Below are positions 30,180 to 36,528 of a DNA stretch of 41,252 nucleotides, one piece after another. Positions within the stretch are counted from its first letter, which is position 1. Each line of letters opens with the position of its first letter. The translations under genes were made by a program, and so were the position numbers. The DNA comes from Actinomycetota bacterium (lineage in GTDB: Bacteria; Actinomycetota; UBA4738; HRBIN12), in NCBI GenBank assembly GCA_050692535.1, contig JBOGVL010000001.1:1-41252 (forward strand), given 5' to 3'. The notes beneath the pieces are model-generated. The model was not told the DNA's origin and searched no databases. It saw nothing but the letters and a program-made list of their open reading frames with translations.

Positions 30180-30869
30180 CTACGCCTCCTCGGGAGCGAG
30201 GAACCGGAAGCCAACGCCCCGGATCGTCGTGATGTAGCGGGGCTTCGACGGGTTCTCCTCGATCTTCTTGCGGAGCCATGAGACGTGCACGTCGAGCGTC
30301 TTTGTGGGGCCGAACCAGTGCGGGTCCCACACCTCGTCCATGATCTCCTCGCGCTTGAGCACCTGCCCGGCGTTGGACATCAGGATGTTGAGCAGGTCGA
30401 ACTCCTTGGCGGCCAGCTCGAGGGTCTCGCCCGCCCGAGTGACCGTCCGCGAGGCCGGGTCGAGCCGGATGTCCCCGATCTCGACCGGCCCCGGCCGCAC
30501 GTCGGCCCGCCCTCGCCGCAGGATCGCCCGGATCCGGGCCGTAAGCTCGCGCATCGAGAACGGCTTGACCACGTAGTCGTCGGCGCCGAGCTCGAGCCCC
30601 ACCACCCGGTCGATCTCCTCGCCCCGAGCGGTGAGCATGATGATCGGCACGTCCGACTCACGCCGGATCTCGCGCGCCAGGTCCCGCCCGTCGCCGTCGG
30701 GAAGCATGACGTCCAGCAGGATCAGGTCCGGCGTGGCGCGCCCGTAGGCACTCCGCGCCGCATCGATCGTGCCGGCCACCTCCGCCTCGAACCCCTCACG
30801 CTCGAGGCTCTCGGCAAGGGGCTCCGAGATGGCCAGCTCATCCTCAACGACCAGTATTCGCGACTTCAC
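30180..30869 (-). CDS. OmpR/PhoB-family response regulator
   Basis: GTG 30869. The receiver reads RILVVEDE...LILLDVMLPDGDG...YVVKPF, followed by a winged helix ...YITTIRGVGFRF. Confidence 0.9.
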   Translation of the reverse strand: MKSRILVVEDELAISEPLAESLEREGFEAEVAGTIDAARSAYGRATPDLILLDVMLPDGDGRDLAREIRRESDVPIIMLTARGEEIDRVVGLELGADDYVVKPFSMRELTARIRAILRRGRADVRPGPVEIGDIRLDPASRTVTRAGETLELAAKEFDLLNILMSNAGQVLKREEIMDEVWDPHWFGPTKTLDVHVSWLRKKIEENPSKPRYITTIRGVGFRFLAPEEA

Positions 30870-30991
30870 GCCCGCGATGGTAGCGGGAGTTCCTATGGTC
30901 CTTCGTTCGGCCCAAGTCACAGCCGGGGTGCTCGAGCTCTGTTCCGGCACCATCGTTCCCTGCCCCGAGGTGCATGCTTCCGGCTTGCTTC

Positions 30992-31411
30992 CTACTCCTC
31001 CTTAGAGCCAACCGCATTGAGGACGGCATCTGCGATGTCGTGCATGGAGCCTCCCTTAACAACATAGGCGGTGGCTCCCGCTTGGAGCGCCTGTCGTTTT
31101 CGGAGTTCGTCATCGAACGTAGACAGCATGACAACGCGAGTCGCAGGCAGGCGGCCTACTATGATTTCGGTCGCCTGAATGCCCCCAATCCCCGGCATCT
31201 TGACGTCCATCAGGACCACATCAGGTGCGAGCTCTTGCGCAAGCTCAATTCCGCTTGCGCCGTCCCCAGCCTCGCCGACAACCGCGATGCCCTCTACCTC
31301 CAAGAGCTCCCGCAGGGCCTGACGGCTGTCCATACTGTCGTCTACAAGCAAGACGCGTGGCTGCGGGCGTGGCGTGGGTACAGGACTCATAGCGATCAAT
31401 CCGTCGAGCAA
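30992..31411 (-). CDS. Receiver-only (CheY-like) response regulator
   Basis: RVLLVDDS...VVLMDVKMPGIGG...VVMLSTF...AYVVKG, with no output domain. The start is TTG 31411 or ATG 31390. Confidence 0.8.
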   Translation of the reverse strand: MLDGLIAMSPVPTPRPQPRVLLVDDSMDSRQALRELLEVEGIAVVGEAGDGASGIELAQELAPDVVLMDVKMPGIGGIQATEIIVGRLPATRVVMLSTFDDELRKRQALQAGATAYVVKGGSMHDIADAVLNAVGSKEE

Positions 31412-31697
31412 TCGCCCCGCCTGGGCGGAATCGTGGGACGGAGTTCCTTGCTCCTCACAGGGTCTTCACTTGATTGTCGGCTATCGGTGAGGTCTTCCCG
31501 ATCCCCCGTTAGGCCAGTCAGGATGCGACTTTCGTTCAGGGTTCTGATCGGGCTACTCTTGACTCCAGATGGCCGCGGGGGGGAGAGGTGAGCCCACTTG
31601 GCCCTCGGCCATGACCTTCCTCGAAGCTCGCGTGCACTGCTAGACAGCCAATGGCGCAGCCAGCTCGCGGGCAGATAACCCTCCTGACGAAAAGGTC

Positions 31698-34600
31698 CTA
31701 ACGCTCAGCCCCGAGCCCTAGCGAGGCTTCGGCCATCTCCACTCGTGCAAGAGACGCCGCGTTCCCCTTTCGACGATACAGATCCGCTGCCGCCTGAAAC
31801 TCAGCGGAGGCGTGAAACACCTTCCCGGCGGCCTGGAGCACAATCCCTAGGTCGAGGTGTGCATCGCCAGCCATGCTGAGCAGATCCGACCCGGCGGCGA
31901 AGGCCACCCCTTCGCCTGCAAGTCGCTCCGCTTCCATGAGCTCCCCGTTGGCAGCCAGAACCTTGGATCGAACACCCCGCCAAGCCATCTGCGACGCGAC
32001 GTCGTCCTCGGCGGTGGCATGTTCACTCTCGATCGTAGCTCGCATTGCCTCGCTGAGATTCCCTTGTCGGTACAAGGCCTCCGCCAACAGCGCAACCGCC
32101 GTCGAGAGCATGCTCCGCTCACCCATTCTCTTCAGCGCCTCGACTGCCGGCCGCAGAACGACTTCGGCGCGGCCCGGATCCTCCGCAAAGAGCATCGCCG
32201 CTCCGTAGTGCATTCGGATGGATACTAGCCTCCATTCAGTGCCGAGCTTTCCTGCACGGATGACGGCGTCGTCCAACAATTTGCGCGCCTGGTCGAATCG
32301 ACCAGCCATTGCAAGGAGGAACCCAAGTCCTGCCAAAGCCTCGGGGTCCGGGCGTTGCGCGCTTGCCAGGTTCTTCTCGATGATCTGAATGCAGCGGTCA
32401 ACCGGGATGGGGCCATGCGCCACACCCAGACTCGAACGCTGAGCAGCCTCTCGCTCGTCGCCTGCCTCGCGTGCGAGACGCTGGCCGATCTCGTACGCCT
32501 CGACGGCTTCAATGGCTCTTCCGCGGCGACCCAGAGCATCTCCGAGAAGTCTGTGCGCTCTCGCAGCACCCGCTAACTCCCCCAGGCTTCGCAGCGCCTT
32601 CTCAGCATCGGCGGCAATCCGCTCAGTCTCCTGAGTGTTCGTGTCGTCGGGCGCACGCCAGAACCTAATATCCGTCTGTTCAAGACGGATACGCCATTCG
32701 GCTATCTCATTCCCAAGGCGGCGAGCATCAGTGAGTGCTTCGCCGAGTACCGACTCGGCCCCGTCCAGGTCACCCGTTTCGAACAATGCAACGCCTAGAC
32801 GCCACCCGATCTCGACCCGAAGGGGATTGTCCTTGTCGAGGAGGCCAAGGGCGCGGTTCAGCAAGCTGCTTGCTGCCGGATTGTCGTCCCGGGCGAGTGC
32901 TCGCACGCCGGCCGACCAGAGCCGAGTCCCGGCGCGATCCGCAAGGGACTGAGTGCCCGAATCGCGGATCCCCAACTCCACACGAAATCCATGTGCGGTC
33001 TCAAAGTGATACCCCACAATCTCCTCTAGCTCAGCTATGCGGCTACCGCTCCCGGCCTCCAGGTACCCTCCCAGCGCCTCGTGAGCCGCAGCCCGGGCTT
33101 CCTTAGACATCGCCCGATAGACCACGTCGCGGATCAGGTGGTGGCGGAACCTGAACGTCCGCCCACCGCTCGGGGACTCACTACGAACTGAGATCAGGTC
33201 CTTCGCATCAAGGTCATCGAGGAGCGTCTCAAGGTGCGTATGATCAAGGTCGAACGCCGCGAGATTCTGTGTCGTGAAGATTTGTCCAACCACCGATGCG
33301 TTTTCCAAGACACGGCGCTGAGCCCCTCCGAGTCGGTCGAGACGGGCGCCGATGAGCGCGTGAATCGTAGGCGGTATGGGGACTTCAGTGAGATCGGAGG
33401 AAGCTACCCAACGACCATCCGTCCATTGCAATAGCCCATCATCGATGAGCATAGCCACGAGCTCTTCGAGGAACAGTGGGTGCCCCTCGCCGGCTTCAAG
33501 AATTCGCTCACGTGCCGTGTCATCAATCTCGACGGGCCCCACGAGATTGTTGACCAGCATTGTGCTCTCCTCGCGGTCCAGTGGGAGCAGCGGCAGATTC
33601 ACAGCATCAAGGCGCCCGCCTCCCCAACCTGGCCGTCTCTCCACAATCTCCGCTCGTGTCATGCACACGACGAGGATCGTCACTCCGCGAGATGCCCGCG
33701 CAACGTGCTCGATGAGATCCAGGAGTGTTGTCTCAGCCCAGTGAATGTCGTCGAACACAAGGACGAGTGGGTGATCGCGAGCGATGATCTCGAACAACCT
33801 TCGTATTGCAAAGAGAGTCTCACCCGGTGCTGGGGGGTTCTCACTCAGGCCGAGAATGGAAGCTATCTGCTCCTCAACGAACCCGGCGTCCTCGGCCGAG
33901 CCCAAGAGTGTTCCTACTCTCGTTCGAGCGGCGTGAGCCAGGTCGGCGTCGTCGATTCTCGCAGCCTGCCGGACCATCTCGGCGACTGGCCAGAAGGTGA
34001 TGTCTCGTCCGTATGACAAGCAGTGGCCGGTCAACACGGTCGCGCTTTCGCGCGCCTGGACCAGGAACTCGCTTACAAGTCGTGTCTTTCCAACGCCCGC
34101 GGATCCAAGCAGGGTGACAAGCGAGGCTCTTCTTCCTAGCGAGGCCCGCGCAAAGGCTTGCCGGAGGACTGTGAGTTCTTCTTGTCGGCCGACGAGAGGG
34201 GAGCTGAATCTGCGGCCCGCCGTGCGGACACTCATGTCATCCACCAACCGGAAAGCGCCTAGTGAGGATGACTCCTCCCCGAGAATAAGAATCTCGGTCG
34301 GTTCCATTCCCGCAGCGCGCTCAACGAGCCTGGCAGCGGCGCCCGACATTAGGACTTCACCTGGTCGGGCTGCTTGCGCGAGTTGGTCGGCCTCTTCAAT
34401 CGGTCCGAGAGTGAGGAGCCGCTGCTCAGCGGCGGAGGATTCAACGAGCGCTTCGCCAAGTCCGATTCCCATACGAGCCGCGAGCGCGACCCCGTTTATC
34501 GCGTCAGCCCCCCCACCTCGCGAAGACGTGGCGCGAAGCTCCATCGCCGTACGAACGGCTCGGGCAACGTCGTCCTCGTGCACTCGGGGCACCCCGAAGA

Positions 34601-35567
34601 CGGCACTGATTCTCCCAACGACGACCTCGTAAACCCAGCCGCCATAGGACTCAATGACCCCTCTTGCGTCCTGTACGGCCCGGTCCAGGGTGGCCTTCCC
34701 CGCTTCCGGATCGTCCGTGGGTCCTGCACCGGTCGAGAATCGGCAGACAAGGGCGGCAACGGTCTTCCTGAGGGTGCGCGGGTCGGTTTCGTCGGCTAGC
34801 GCCGGCGAATTGAGAGCGGCATCCTGCGCAAGGATCTGTCGTTCGAGTCGCCGAATAGCCGGGCCGACCTCGATACCAACCTCGGTAGAGAGTCGATGCC
34901 GGAGTTGGGTGATCGAATCAAGAGCCTCCGCTTGCCGCCCGGTTCGGTACAAGGCAATGGCAGCCAAACCGTGGATCCGCTCGTTGAGAGGGAGTGCTGC
35001 CCGCAAGGCCTCAAGCTCAGGCACCGCCTCGACATGTCTGCCAAGAGCCAATTGCGCCTCCAGTCGTTCGGCTCGAGTGGCGAGGAGCAGTTCATCCAAC
35101 TCGGCGAGCTCGGGCTGCGGCACGCCAGGGATGTCCACGTTTGAGAGAGGGGTTCCCTTCCACAGCTTCAGAGCTCGATCTAGCGTGTCCCACGCGGCCC
35201 TGTACTCGGCGTGGGCCATTTCTGCACGGCCTTGCTGAGCCAGCCTGCGGAACTCGTCCAGATCCAGTCGATCGGGGCCAACATGCAAGACGTAGCCCCT
35301 GTCTCGCGATTCCAGGATCACCGTTGGATCGCCGTCTATCAGTTTCCTGAGACGCGAAACGTGCATCTGCAGCGCGGTACGAGCGGTGGCAGGCGGCTCG
35401 TCTCCCCAGAGGGCGTCAATGAGTGTCGGGGAGGAGAAGACCTGCTCTGCGCCGAAAAGGAGGACAGCCAGCAGCCCCTTGAGCTTGGAGCCGCGAAAAG
35501 GGATTGGTGACCCGTTCCGCTCGACCTCAAGAGGCCCCAACACCCGAAAGACCAGGTGATCAGCCAT
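31698..35567 (-). CDS. SARP (OmpR-type wHTH + BTAD) - degenerate cyclase-homology domain - AAA/STAND P-loop NTPase - TPR multidomain regulator (1289 aa)
   Basis: ATG 35567. The SARP region is FRVLGPLEV...LKGLLAVLL...ALWGDEPP...ALQMHVSRLRK...LDLDEFRRL. The cyclase-like region is TVAALVCRFS...AVFGVPRVHEDDVARAV...ARMGIGLGEALV, which lacks the FxDxxGFT aspartates. Walker A is GSAGVGKT and Walker B is LVLVFDDIHW. The C-terminal 550 aa are TPR-like. Confidence 0.9.
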   Translation of the reverse strand: MADHLVFRVLGPLEVERNGSPIPFRGSKLKGLLAVLLFGAEQVFSSPTLIDALWGDEPPATARTALQMHVSRLRKLIDGDPTVILESRDRGYVLHVGPDRLDLDEFRRLAQQGRAEMAHAEYRAAWDTLDRALKLWKGTPLSNVDIPGVPQPELAELDELLLATRAERLEAQLALGRHVEAVPELEALRAALPLNERIHGLAAIALYRTGRQAEALDSITQLRHRLSTEVGIEVGPAIRRLERQILAQDAALNSPALADETDPRTLRKTVAALVCRFSTGAGPTDDPEAGKATLDRAVQDARGVIESYGGWVYEVVVGRISAVFGVPRVHEDDVARAVRTAMELRATSSRGGGADAINGVALAARMGIGLGEALVESSAAEQRLLTLGPIEEADQLAQAARPGEVLMSGAAARLVERAAGMEPTEILILGEESSSLGAFRLVDDMSVRTAGRRFSSPLVGRQEELTVLRQAFARASLGRRASLVTLLGSAGVGKTRLVSEFLVQARESATVLTGHCLSYGRDITFWPVAEMVRQAARIDDADLAHAARTRVGTLLGSAEDAGFVEEQIASILGLSENPPAPGETLFAIRRLFEIIARDHPLVLVFDDIHWAETTLLDLIEHVARASRGVTILVVCMTRAEIVERRPGWGGGRLDAVNLPLLPLDREESTMLVNNLVGPVEIDDTARERILEAGEGHPLFLEELVAMLIDDGLLQWTDGRWVASSDLTEVPIPPTIHALIGARLDRLGGAQRRVLENASVVGQIFTTQNLAAFDLDHTHLETLLDDLDAKDLISVRSESPSGGRTFRFRHHLIRDVVYRAMSKEARAAAHEALGGYLEAGSGSRIAELEEIVGYHFETAHGFRVELGIRDSGTQSLADRAGTRLWSAGVRALARDDNPAASSLLNRALGLLDKDNPLRVEIGWRLGVALFETGDLDGAESVLGEALTDARRLGNEIAEWRIRLEQTDIRFWRAPDDTNTQETERIAADAEKALRSLGELAGAARAHRLLGDALGRRGRAIEAVEAYEIGQRLAREAGDEREAAQRSSLGVAHGPIPVDRCIQIIEKNLASAQRPDPEALAGLGFLLAMAGRFDQARKLLDDAVIRAGKLGTEWRLVSIRMHYGAAMLFAEDPGRAEVVLRPAVEALKRMGERSMLSTAVALLAEALYRQGNLSEAMRATIESEHATAEDDVASQMAWRGVRSKVLAANGELMEAERLAGEGVAFAAGSDLLSMAGDAHLDLGIVLQAAGKVFHASAEFQAAADLYRRKGNAASLARVEMAEASLGLGAER

Positions 35568-35643
35568 GTTCCCCCCGGACCCAGTGGCGCGGCCCCAGCG
35601 TAACGGAGTCGCCAGGCTGGATGCCACTCCCGGACGGTCAGAA

Positions 35644-35672
35644 ACGTTAGCGCGGCGTTAGGGATGCGTTAG
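35644..35672. promoter_or_regulatory. Three direct heptamer repeats (A/G)CGTTAG with exact 11-nt periodicity; candidate SARP operator
   Basis: acgttag at 35644-35650, gcgttag at 35655-35661 and gcgttag at 35666-35672. The array lies in the divergent region between the SARP gene (ATG 35567, minus strand) and the 27-codon gene (ATG 35729, plus strand). Confidence 0.5.
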
Positions 35673-35728
35673 CGGCGCCGACGACTCTGGCCTCCAAGCG
35701 ACCCCAAGAAGGGGAAGGGAGGCAAGCC

Positions 35729-35812
35729 ATGCGAGCTCTCAGGCGTCTCGCCCTTGCGGCAGGCACGCTGTTCGCGCTCGCCCTCGCCGGCGGCGCGCAC
35801 ATCAGGTTCTAA
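35729..35812 (+). CDS. 27-aa signal-peptide-like micro-protein MRALRRLALAAGTLFALALAGGAHIRF
   Basis: It is not in the ORF track because it is too short. GGGAGG (35717-35722) lies 6 nt before the ATG. It is paralogous to 36192-36275, with only synonymous DNA differences across the shared C-terminus. Confidence 0.6.
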   Translation: MRALRRLALAAGTLFALALAGGAHIRF

Positions 35813-35929
35813 TGCGGCTTCGCACCGGATCCACCTAAGCGCGTAGCCGCCGCCTCCGGCGGCACCCGGCGTCTGCACCCGTCGGGGCGCCCGCTGGCGA
35901 GGTAGGCCGACTTTGAAGGGCGGTACAAG

Positions 35930-35953
35930 CGCCCCCGGCCTTAGTCGGGGGCG
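35930..35953 (+). terminator. GC hairpin followed by a T-containing tract, downstream of the plus-strand micro-ORF
   Basis: cgcccccg (35930-35937) / loop gccttagt / cgggggcg (35946-35953), then ttgcccttgggttcttc. A smaller hairpin, gccgccg-cctc-cggcggc, lies at 35846-35863. Confidence 0.35.
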
Positions 35954-36128
35954 TTGCCCTTGGGTTCTTCTGCCCCCCAGCCTCATGACTGGGCAGGACG
36001 GCCCCCAAGGAGTGCGTAGGGTCGGCTCCCGCGGATCCTCCCCTTCGCCCTATCCCAGGGAGTCGCCGCGGCGAGGCCGCAGCTACGGTCCTTTCTGGGT
36101 GGGTGTGTTTGACGAAATGCACACACCA

Positions 36129-36159
36129 CGTAGGCTCCGGGGGTCTCCCGGAGCCTACG
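36129..36159 (-). terminator. 13-bp perfect-stem hairpin 33 nt downstream of the minus-strand micro-ORF
   Basis: cgtaggctccggg (36129-36141) / loop ggtct / cccggagcctacg (36147-36159). An adjacent 7-bp hairpin, ggtgtgt...acacacc, lies at 36102-36127. Confidence 0.4.
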
Positions 36160-36191
36160 GAATGACTTTCGACGACTTGTGGTCGGTGGAA

Positions 36192-36275
36192 CTAGAACCG
36201 GATGTGAGCGCCGCCGGCCAGAGCCAGCGCCGCGAGCGAGCCGACCGCAATGGCGAACCGCTTGATCAGCTTCAT
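36192..36275 (-). CDS. 27-aa signal-peptide-like micro-protein MKLIKRFAIAVGSLAALALAGGAHIRF
   Basis: It is not in the ORF track. GGAGG lies 7 nt upstream of ATG 36275. It has the same length and the same C-terminal 12 residues as 35729-35812. Confidence 0.6.
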   Translation of the reverse strand: MKLIKRFAIAVGSLAALALAGGAHIRF

Positions 36276-36359
36276 CTCTCCACCTCCCTCAAGGACTGCT
36301 GGGAGACCTAGCCCCCCGGCCGATGCTGATATCCCCCACTCTCGTCCTCCCCAACAAAA

Positions 36360-36388
36360 GGAGGATGATTGGAGGAACTATCGGAGGA
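36360..36388. promoter_or_regulatory. Three direct GGAGGA repeats spaced 11 and 12 nt
   Basis: ggagga occurs at 36360-36365, 36371-36376 and 36383-36388, in the divergent region between the minus-strand micro-ORF and the HisKA_3 kinase. Confidence 0.35.
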
Positions 36389-36528
36389 CCCCCCAACGGC
36401 CCACAAGCCGCCTCTCCGCCCTACAGAACCCACCGTACGTAGTGGGCGCAGGCGAAGCCGCCGAAGAGGTGGTTTCAACTAGCTTCCTCAAAGGGCAAGA
36501 TGGGGCGTTCGCTCAGGAGCGGGTGAGG

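Follow-up and report, generated by a model that had tools for sequence, protein, structure and literature searches.

Three heptamers of the form (A/G)CGTTAG are probably, at about 80%, the operator ('SARP box') through which a divergently transcribed SARP regulator of 1289 aa would activate a 27-codon micro-ORF. The initial annotation of this DNA had proposed a SARP operator driving the micro-ORF, and the proposal is strongly supported by comparison with related genomes, which bears on the conservation of the repeats, their fixed distance to a −10 element and their linkage to SARP genes. By the window we mean the whole stretch of DNA analysed, 41,252 nt in length; it belongs to an incomplete assembly (G000; 2.96 Mb in 467 contigs, 70.7% G+C, 87% complete).

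Three in-phase repeats form a single site in the genome

The array lies between two genes that are read away from each other, and these elements are as follows.

35644–35650, plus strand: direct repeat 1 (distal), ACGTTAG, predicted at about −51 to −45; its core CGTTAG is invariant in the orthologous loci of G011 and G003
35655–35661, plus strand: direct repeat 2, GCGTTAG, predicted at about −40 to −34, at the −35 position; it corresponds to the upstream afs-box repeat (−40 to −30; PMC10936776)
35666–35672, plus strand: direct repeat 3 (proximal), GCGTTAG, predicted at about −29 to −23; it corresponds to the downstream afs-box repeat (−29 to −19)
35729–35812, plus strand: target micro-ORF, 27 codons and stop, MRALRRLALAAGTLFALALAGGAHIRF, matching the family profile with E 8e-12
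31698–35567, minus strand: large SARP regulator gene, 1289 aa, with wHTH, BTAD, AAA_16 and TPR

We confirmed the coordinates given initially for the heptamers: they start at 35644, 35655 and 35666, a period of exactly 11 nt, and the two spacers within the array are unlike each other (cgcg and ggat). The distances to the flanking genes were correct as well, the array ending 57 nt before the micro-ORF ATG at 35729 and starting 77 nt from the SARP ATG at 35567, a start that was also returned by an independent gene call. The word CGTTAG itself is not enriched, since the window holds six copies and 6.25 are expected from shuffles. Three of these six are clustered in phase, and the paired pattern gave two matches for 0.24 expected. 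The minus-strand CGTTAG at the SARP stop codon (31698) had rightly been taken for a chance copy.

We then considered both strands of the whole 2.96-Mb assembly, which contains 65 copies of CGTTAG. Within this assembly no other CGTTAG pair was found at 11 or 22 nt, allowing as many as 3 mismatches in the 18 core bases revealed no second array, and a looser rule (three TTAG with at most 1 mismatch, followed by N10 and NANNNT) returned no other site. Similarly, the array (up to 2 mismatches) occurs exactly once per genome in G000, G003 and G011, and a reversed control pattern had no match in these three. A single array in the genome points to a dedicated pair of one regulator and one promoter. 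As a score based on arbitrary triple 7-mers with period 11 tells only the best-kept boxes apart from shuffles, giving degenerate boxes background-like values, a rule combining the repeat cores with the −10 was used instead.

Short repeats of this kind can also be functionless, arising by chance or by slippage as an 11-nt tandem repeat. Public genomes contain at least 120 matches to the CGTTAG 11-nt array, most with identical spacers, and the exact triple arrays frequent in other phyla are mostly perfect tandem repeats, with no SARP in any of the 8-kb loci, a result that carries no information on the regulator studied here. The word is thus not specific to SARPs, and it is the context that identifies the binder. 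In the present case the cores are kept while the spacers vary, both inside the array and from one orthologue to another; three genomes each have a single such array, and its distance to a conserved −10 is fixed. We therefore regard a functionless tandem repeat as extremely unlikely.

A predicted weak promoter at a fixed distance from the repeats

The predicted promoter and transcript that follow the array comprise these elements, in addition to the micro-ORF.

35683–35688, plus strand: predicted −10 GACTCT, with A at 35684 and T at 35688; start site predicted at about 35695
35702–35714, plus strand: 5′-UTR hairpin (CCCC, loop AAGAA, GGGG), present in the minimum-free-energy fold
35717–35722, plus strand: RBS GGGAGG, kept as GGAGG in the orthologues
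35928–35963, plus strand: terminator hairpin(s) closing the short transcript; equivalent GC-rich hairpins are found in G011 and G003

A −10 had been anticipated at about 35681–35688, but none had been recognised from the single sequence; GACTCT (35683–35688) is found there, recognisable only by comparison of promoters. In the 15 triple-box (class-B) promoters that we compared, A at position 2 and T at position 6 of the −10 are invariant, and in all 15 a gap of exactly 10 nt separates the last core from (c)ANNNT, the register of three of them (G154, G155 and G156) being taken from a rule-based scan. The 8 nt previously quoted for the distance between repeat and −10 depends on framing: 10 nt are counted from the heptamer as initially drawn, and 7 nt when counting from TT.

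With GACTCT set at −12 to −7, the heptamers start at −51, −40 and −29. The box overlaps the −35 position, the −35 itself is poor or absent and the −10 is suboptimal, the start site being predicted from conservation. No match to a sigma-70 consensus promoter was detected in 35450–36500, as expected for an activator-dependent promoter.

A hairpin of the CCCC-loop-GGGG form lies just past the predicted start in both promoter classes of the micro-ORF family, and may serve as an mRNA stabiliser or as a regulatory site. Downstream of the micro-ORF, the sequence of the 3′-UTR is not conserved, unlike the presence of GC-rich hairpins.

The repeats are kept with the SARP orthologue

A full-length SARP orthologue was found in two of the 40 nearest genomes, G011 and G003 (the latter a single contig, 95% complete), each 67% identical to the regulator of the window. 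The array had been expected to persist in genomes that keep the SARP gene, and it is present in both: CCGTTAG-ccgc-GCGTTAG-cggg-TCGTTAG in G011 and ACGTTAG-tgac-ACGTTAG-cccc-CCATTAG in G003. In total, 35 of the 36 core bases in the two genomes match the window, and the spacers show random-level identity. A three-way alignment of the intergenic regions shows conserved islands, namely the three cores, an A..CT located 10 nt past the last core, the CCCC/GGGG hairpin and the RBS, as well as, on the opposite strand, a TANNNT hexamer before the SARP gene. The micro-ORF is conserved together with the array in both orthologous loci.

In G003 the SARP-driven micro-ORF (L023, ~2434–2515) is one base out of frame in a G run relative to all other copies; given that this is a single-contig assembly, we read the slip as an assembly error or a broken gene.

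Next in similarity comes the SARP of G111 (53% identical), which is adjoined by neither array nor micro-ORF. A metagenome scan with the SARP N-terminal domain returned only paralogues of at most 47% identity, none of them with the micro-ORF, and the collections searched yielded no closer orthologue.

Related SARP loci share the geometry of the promoter

A SARP-domain search of the 294 genomes of the order gave matches in 148. With other sequences, three nnnTTAG-like repeats in 11-nt phase are also found at ten further related SARP loci; the repeats seen among the best 30 loci include CGTTAC, TTTTAG, CTTAG, TTTGGC/TTTAGC, TCAGCG and TGAGC. The 11-nt period holds in 14 of the 15 related promoters, the remaining one (G102) having 10 + 12.

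We then examined how these promoters are placed relative to SARP genes. In the fetched set, a SARP start is located 162–377 nt away from 10 of the 12 rule-fitting promoters. One exception lies on contig 23 of G197, where the box is the same as that of the SARP-adjacent promoter in the same genome, and the other is G102, with its SARP 5 kb away. No SARP occurs within 5 kb of the other promoters in the micro-ORF family (0 of 50), and the background fit of the triple-box rule is 11 of 6926 tiles; the rule was written post hoc, after viewing the same promoters, and the loci are related, so that the 2 × 2 association with SARPs overstates independence and these counts are descriptive, not a test statistic.

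In G197, a CCTTAG/TCTTAG/TCTTAG box stands before two micro-ORF pairs, L055 (C23) and L077 (C8), one of them beside the SARP gene. This is a two-promoter regulon. A second triple-box promoter on another contig is also found in G209 (L316, G209:C195), and the tail of its peptide reads FKIV versus WKA.

The same comparison bears on autoregulation of the SARP gene, which had been suggested from the divergent layout. According to this explanation, the array would mainly serve the divergent promoter of the regulator and not the micro-ORF. The regulator has its own predicted −10.

35602–35597, minus strand: predicted −10 of the SARP gene, TACGCT; an equivalent hexamer occupies this position in the orthologues and at more than 10 related SARP loci

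A gap of 41 nt separates this element from the array upstream of it, and an effect from about −50 to −80 is possible. The distance from the box to the −10 of the micro-ORF is fixed in 15 of 15 promoters, whereas both the distance to the SARP gene (162–377 nt) and the orientation (divergent or co-directional) vary. In addition, one G197 box precedes a second micro-ORF pair on another contig, in a region free of SARP genes within 5 kb. Read-through from the micro-ORF into the SARP gene was also considered as a form of autoregulation in co-directional loci and was rejected: in the four loci with an upstream co-directional micro-ORF, strong hairpins precede the SARP gene, which keeps its own TANNNT −10. 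Among relatives this −10 reads TAGGCT (the form in the orthologues), TACGCT or TAGCGT. Thus, in view of the conserved TANNNT −10 (TACGCT), the separating hairpins and the variable SARP distance set against a fixed −10 distance, autoregulation is neither needed nor indicated, and we consider it very unlikely that the array acts mainly on the SARP gene. The preferred reading remains that of an operator serving the micro-ORF.

The micro-protein family and its ordinary-promoter copies

A profile built from nine members found the micro-protein family in 204 of the 294 genomes of the order. The 70 copies read, from 61 loci, all begin with a basic N-terminus and a hydrophobic stretch, continue with LAGGAH, and end in an aromatic or aliphatic residue, R/K and 1–3 further residues. 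LAGGAH is kept with almost no exception among the 70 copies. Searched against Pfam and NCBIfam, the micro-protein matched none of their families, down to a threshold as permissive as E ≤ 10.

A second copy of the micro-ORF is found in the window, convergent with the first, and the C-terminal 12 residues of the two products are identical.

36192–36275, minus strand: second micro-ORF copy, MKLIKRFAIAVGSLAALALAGGAHIRF, with an ordinary promoter; it lies outside the SARP unit and serves as a contrast
36406–36401 and 36382–36377, minus strand: its promoter, with −35 TTGTGG and −10 GATAGT (TTGTGG-N18-GATAGT)

Two promoter classes can be told apart in the family, 45 ordinary (class-A) promoters versus 12 fetched triple-box promoters. 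The ordinary form, TTGTCC-N17–19-GATAGT, includes the promoter of the second copy in the window. In sequence this form (CTTGTCCCCC..GGGGGTCCCCCGATAGT) is common to 45 loci of the order.

A GGAGGA triple repeat at 36360–36388 had also been listed as an array before the second micro-ORF; it is probably no operator of the SARP kind, the other 44 promoters having TCCCCC/GGGGG there and no triple repeat. Read on the strand of the gene, the three TCCTCC units were tried as another box and rejected: they straddle the GATAGT −10 and the early transcript, and the repeats are not conserved.

The residues that follow GGAH differ between genera (IRF, MRF, FKAG, FRAG, WRAG, FKF). Within genomes, they are the same in the SARP-driven and ordinary copies in 8 of 13 cases, for example IRF/IRF in G000 and G003 and MRF/MRF in G011 (SARP-driven/ordinary; example loci of the paired comparison are L070, L312, L066, L059, L060 and L057). 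In the window, the last 12 codons shared by the two copies (35777–35812 versus 36192–36227) carry 5 synonymous differences, pointing to selection rather than to recent gene conversion. Together, the family data suggest that the SARP-driven micro-ORF is an extra, inducible copy, the other copies having an ordinary promoter and no SARP nearby.

Other candidate binders and the context of the locus

Direct repeats one turn apart are also bound by other winged-helix proteins, and a further explanation is that the array is the operator of such a protein, for example the OmpR-family response regulator encoded at 30180–30953 (minus strand), or of one encoded elsewhere. A protein with Response_reg and Trans_reg_C domains is indeed found 4.7 kb away. 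Conserved CGTTAG triple arrays in Streptomyces have no SARP within 8 kb, so another protein may read the word there. Members of the response-regulator family are, however, conserved neighbours on the downstream side of ordinary-promoter copies, and these copies have no repeats (21 loci, median ~1.6 kb). Of the 22 loci of this family, 18 are class A only, and a member is present within 5 kb in only 4 of the 13 class-B loci, whereas a SARP start lies less than 400 nt from 10 of the 12 rule-fitting promoters. As in SARP promoters, the box also overlaps the −35 position and keeps a constant spacing to the −10. Another winged-helix protein is thus an unlikely reader of the array, and the adjacent SARP is retained as its probable binder.

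The Streptomyces arrays form a separate observation. In several species (L123, L138, L145, L178, L186, L190, L197 and L218) a conserved 11-nt-phased triple CGTTAG, TCGTTAGtggtGCGTTAGcgccTCGTTAGcgg, is located upstream of a DUF4232 lipoprotein gene, and no SARP occurs within 8 kb. In S. chattanoogensis, a TetR-family gene and a gene for AfsA (butyrolactone synthase) adjoin the array.

The region 31000–36500 is a block of lower GC (60–64% versus 70.7% for the genome) that holds a receiver-only protein, the SARP gene and the SARP-driven micro-ORF. On one side of it is the ordinary micro-ORF, on the other the response-regulator/kinase pair. At 21 other loci the OmpR-type regulator and kinase are found ~1.6 kb past the ordinary micro-ORF; here the distance is 5.2 kb, so that the block looks like an insertion. 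This suggests that the SARP cassette is an inserted module adding an inducible copy of the micro-ORF.

The neighbouring regulator and its DNA-contacting residues

The neighbour of the array had been annotated as a SARP, and Pfam bears this out with Trans_reg_C, BTAD, AAA_16 and TPR. The independent gene call on the public assembly gave an identical protein from the same ATG. The AAA_16 match has E 1e-22 and TPR_MalT is faint. No LuxR-type HTH (GerE/LuxR) was matched by Pfam in the 1289 aa. Regulators of the PimR type also have a region homologous to guanylate cyclases; for about residues 240–456 of the present protein, in which a pseudo-cyclase had initially been suggested, Pfam gave no family at E ≤ 0.01. 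By the published classification, a protein with these predicted domains is a large SARP of the SARP-LAL sort.

Residues 1–254 align to the SARP domain of AfsR (PDB 8K60) with E 9e-36. The ATPase part does not align to AfsR: the central NB-ARC is absent, and Pfam gives AAA_16. The AfsR contact residues W74, P79, S91, R92, R94 and K95 are kept as W54, P59, S71, R72, R74 and K75. Repeat position 5 is read by T88 in AfsR; the corresponding residue here is M, and the base at that position likewise differs from afsS. Across the loci the equivalent of T88 tracks the type of repeat, being M with CGTTAG, G with CGTTAC and mostly V with YTTAG, a tracking that is only suggestive as it is confounded with phylogeny.

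The ATPase-TPR part has 16 matches in the ~3-Mb G000 genome, most of them in proteins lacking a SARP domain, and numbers are similar in relatives. For such small genomes this is a large expansion of STAND-type proteins.

Proposed mechanism and possible roles of the product

We infer the binding, the activation, the start site and the signal in the following scheme from the arrangement described above. wHTH-BTAD protomers would occupy a single face of the DNA in head-to-tail order, at about −51, −40 and −29. They would replace the missing −35 and offer a docking surface for sigma region 4 and the RNA polymerase core, and the bound SARP would in this way activate the weak promoter with its −10 GACTCT (35683–35688). 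The predicted product is a transcript of ~260 nt carrying the 5′ hairpin, the RBS, the 27-codon micro-ORF and the terminator. The ATPase-TPR part presumably gates the activity of the SARP on a signal. The weak points of this reading are a register 1 bp off that of afsS and a weak −10.

For the micro-protein, the strongly conserved hydrophobic part favours a role as a one-helix membrane partner. A more speculative view, which we hold to be rather improbable, is that the unit forms an autoinduction loop for a peptide, with SARP, ATPase and TPR parts as its chassis: the TPR part would sense the C-terminal 5–9 residues once these are released, and the SARP would activate the peptide gene by way of the triple box. 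The 27-residue product would then be a pro-peptide with a basic N-terminus, a hydrophobic stretch, an A-x-A and a GGAH-x-R/K-x end. Such a loop fits the divergent layout, the single target, the tails that vary between genera and the copies that are alike in 8 of 13 genomes. If it existed, it would be an actinobacterial counterpart, in logic, to Rgg/SHP or ComR/XIP, and if the micro-protein were the regulator's own signal, the peptide signalling would be of a kind so far undescribed in this group.

To our knowledge, SARPs are known almost only as switches of antibiotic clusters in streptomycetes. In this small-genome bacterium, uncultured and high in GC, a SARP-LAL-like regulator would have one clearly defined operator and one non-biosynthetic target, the inducible copy of a widespread and previously undescribed 27-residue micro-protein. 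The 15 promoters, in which repeats and recognition-helix residues co-vary, offer a natural series on how SARPs read DNA. Moreover, the geometry (three boxes, 10 nt, cANNNT) can be applied to regulon prediction in genomes beyond culture.

Comparison with known systems

One-helix micro-proteins of the MgrB, SafA and PmrR type, small membrane partners of sensor kinases, resemble the product in form. Ordinary copies of the family are usually divergent from a polytopic HisKA_3 kinase: of the 14 members of the kinase family, 11 are encoded upstream on the other strand, the median distance being 190 nt. In sequence the micro-proteins are unrelated to MgrB, SafA or PmrR, a group not known to be under SARP control.

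In the Rgg/SHP and ComR/XIP systems of streptococci (RRNPP), a regulator with a repeat domain adjoins a divergent gene of ~25 codons, with its operator in the promoter of that gene. The products of peptide genes of the Rgg/SHP type have a basic N-terminus and a hydrophobic stretch, and their short C-terminus is conserved. There the peptide is exported and processed, and the repeat domain of the neighbouring regulator senses it; the likeness seen here concerns the gene layout and the shape of the peptide only. The DNA-binding and ATPase modules are unrelated. Compared with a leader of the Rgg/SHP type, the hydrophobic part is unusually conserved here, and no regulator of this kind is found near most members of the family.

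AfsR and the afs box of Streptomyces coelicolor (PDB 8HVR, 8K60, 8JKE) provide the structural reference. In SARP targets the direct repeats are spaced by 11 or 22 bp, and the distance between the 3′ repeat and the −10 is 8 bp (PMC10936776). In afsS, two 11-bp repeats span −40 to −19; its promoter has a poor −35, a 20-bp spacer and the −10 CACTGT. As proposed for the window, a large SARP with ATPase and TPR parts activates the adjacent gene of a small protein there; also common to both are the 11-bp repeats over the −35 with units from about −40 and −29, the suboptimal −10 of the form CANNNT and the contact residues. AfsR R92 reads the essential T of the repeat, which in afsS is 16 nt from A(−11); the first T of the proximal CGTTAG is 15 nt from A35684, a difference of 1 bp by which the register is shorter here. 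The two systems also differ in the number of repeats (three here, two in the afs box), in the core CGTTAG found here, and in the ATPase, which is of the AAA_16/MalT type here and NB-ARC in AfsR, so that the alignment covers the SARP domain only. Finally, the target is a hydrophobic peptide of 27 aa rather than the 63-aa AfsS, and the host is an uncultured bacterium with a ~3-Mb genome rather than a streptomycete.

In operator format and logic, PimR of Streptomyces natalensis, the archetype of the SARP-LAL group, is the closest match. PimR has three heptamers with 4-bp spacers and a single divergent target, pimM. Both regulators combine a SARP domain with a LAL-type P-loop part that lacks the LuxR HTH, are transcribed divergently from the neighbouring gene, and are associated with three heptamers separated by 4 bp and with one target. 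Unlike PimR, no biosynthetic cluster was seen among the genes examined (~27–41 kb). The heptamer is CGGCAAG in PimR, SanG and PolR, and (A/G)CGTTAG here. The PimR operator is located off the −35, whereas the present array overlaps it and has no secondary 10-bp operator. The target of PimR is a PAS-LuxR regulator, and that of the SARP in the window would be a micro-protein. The type of switch is well known; its setting in an uncultured high-GC host and its target are unusual.
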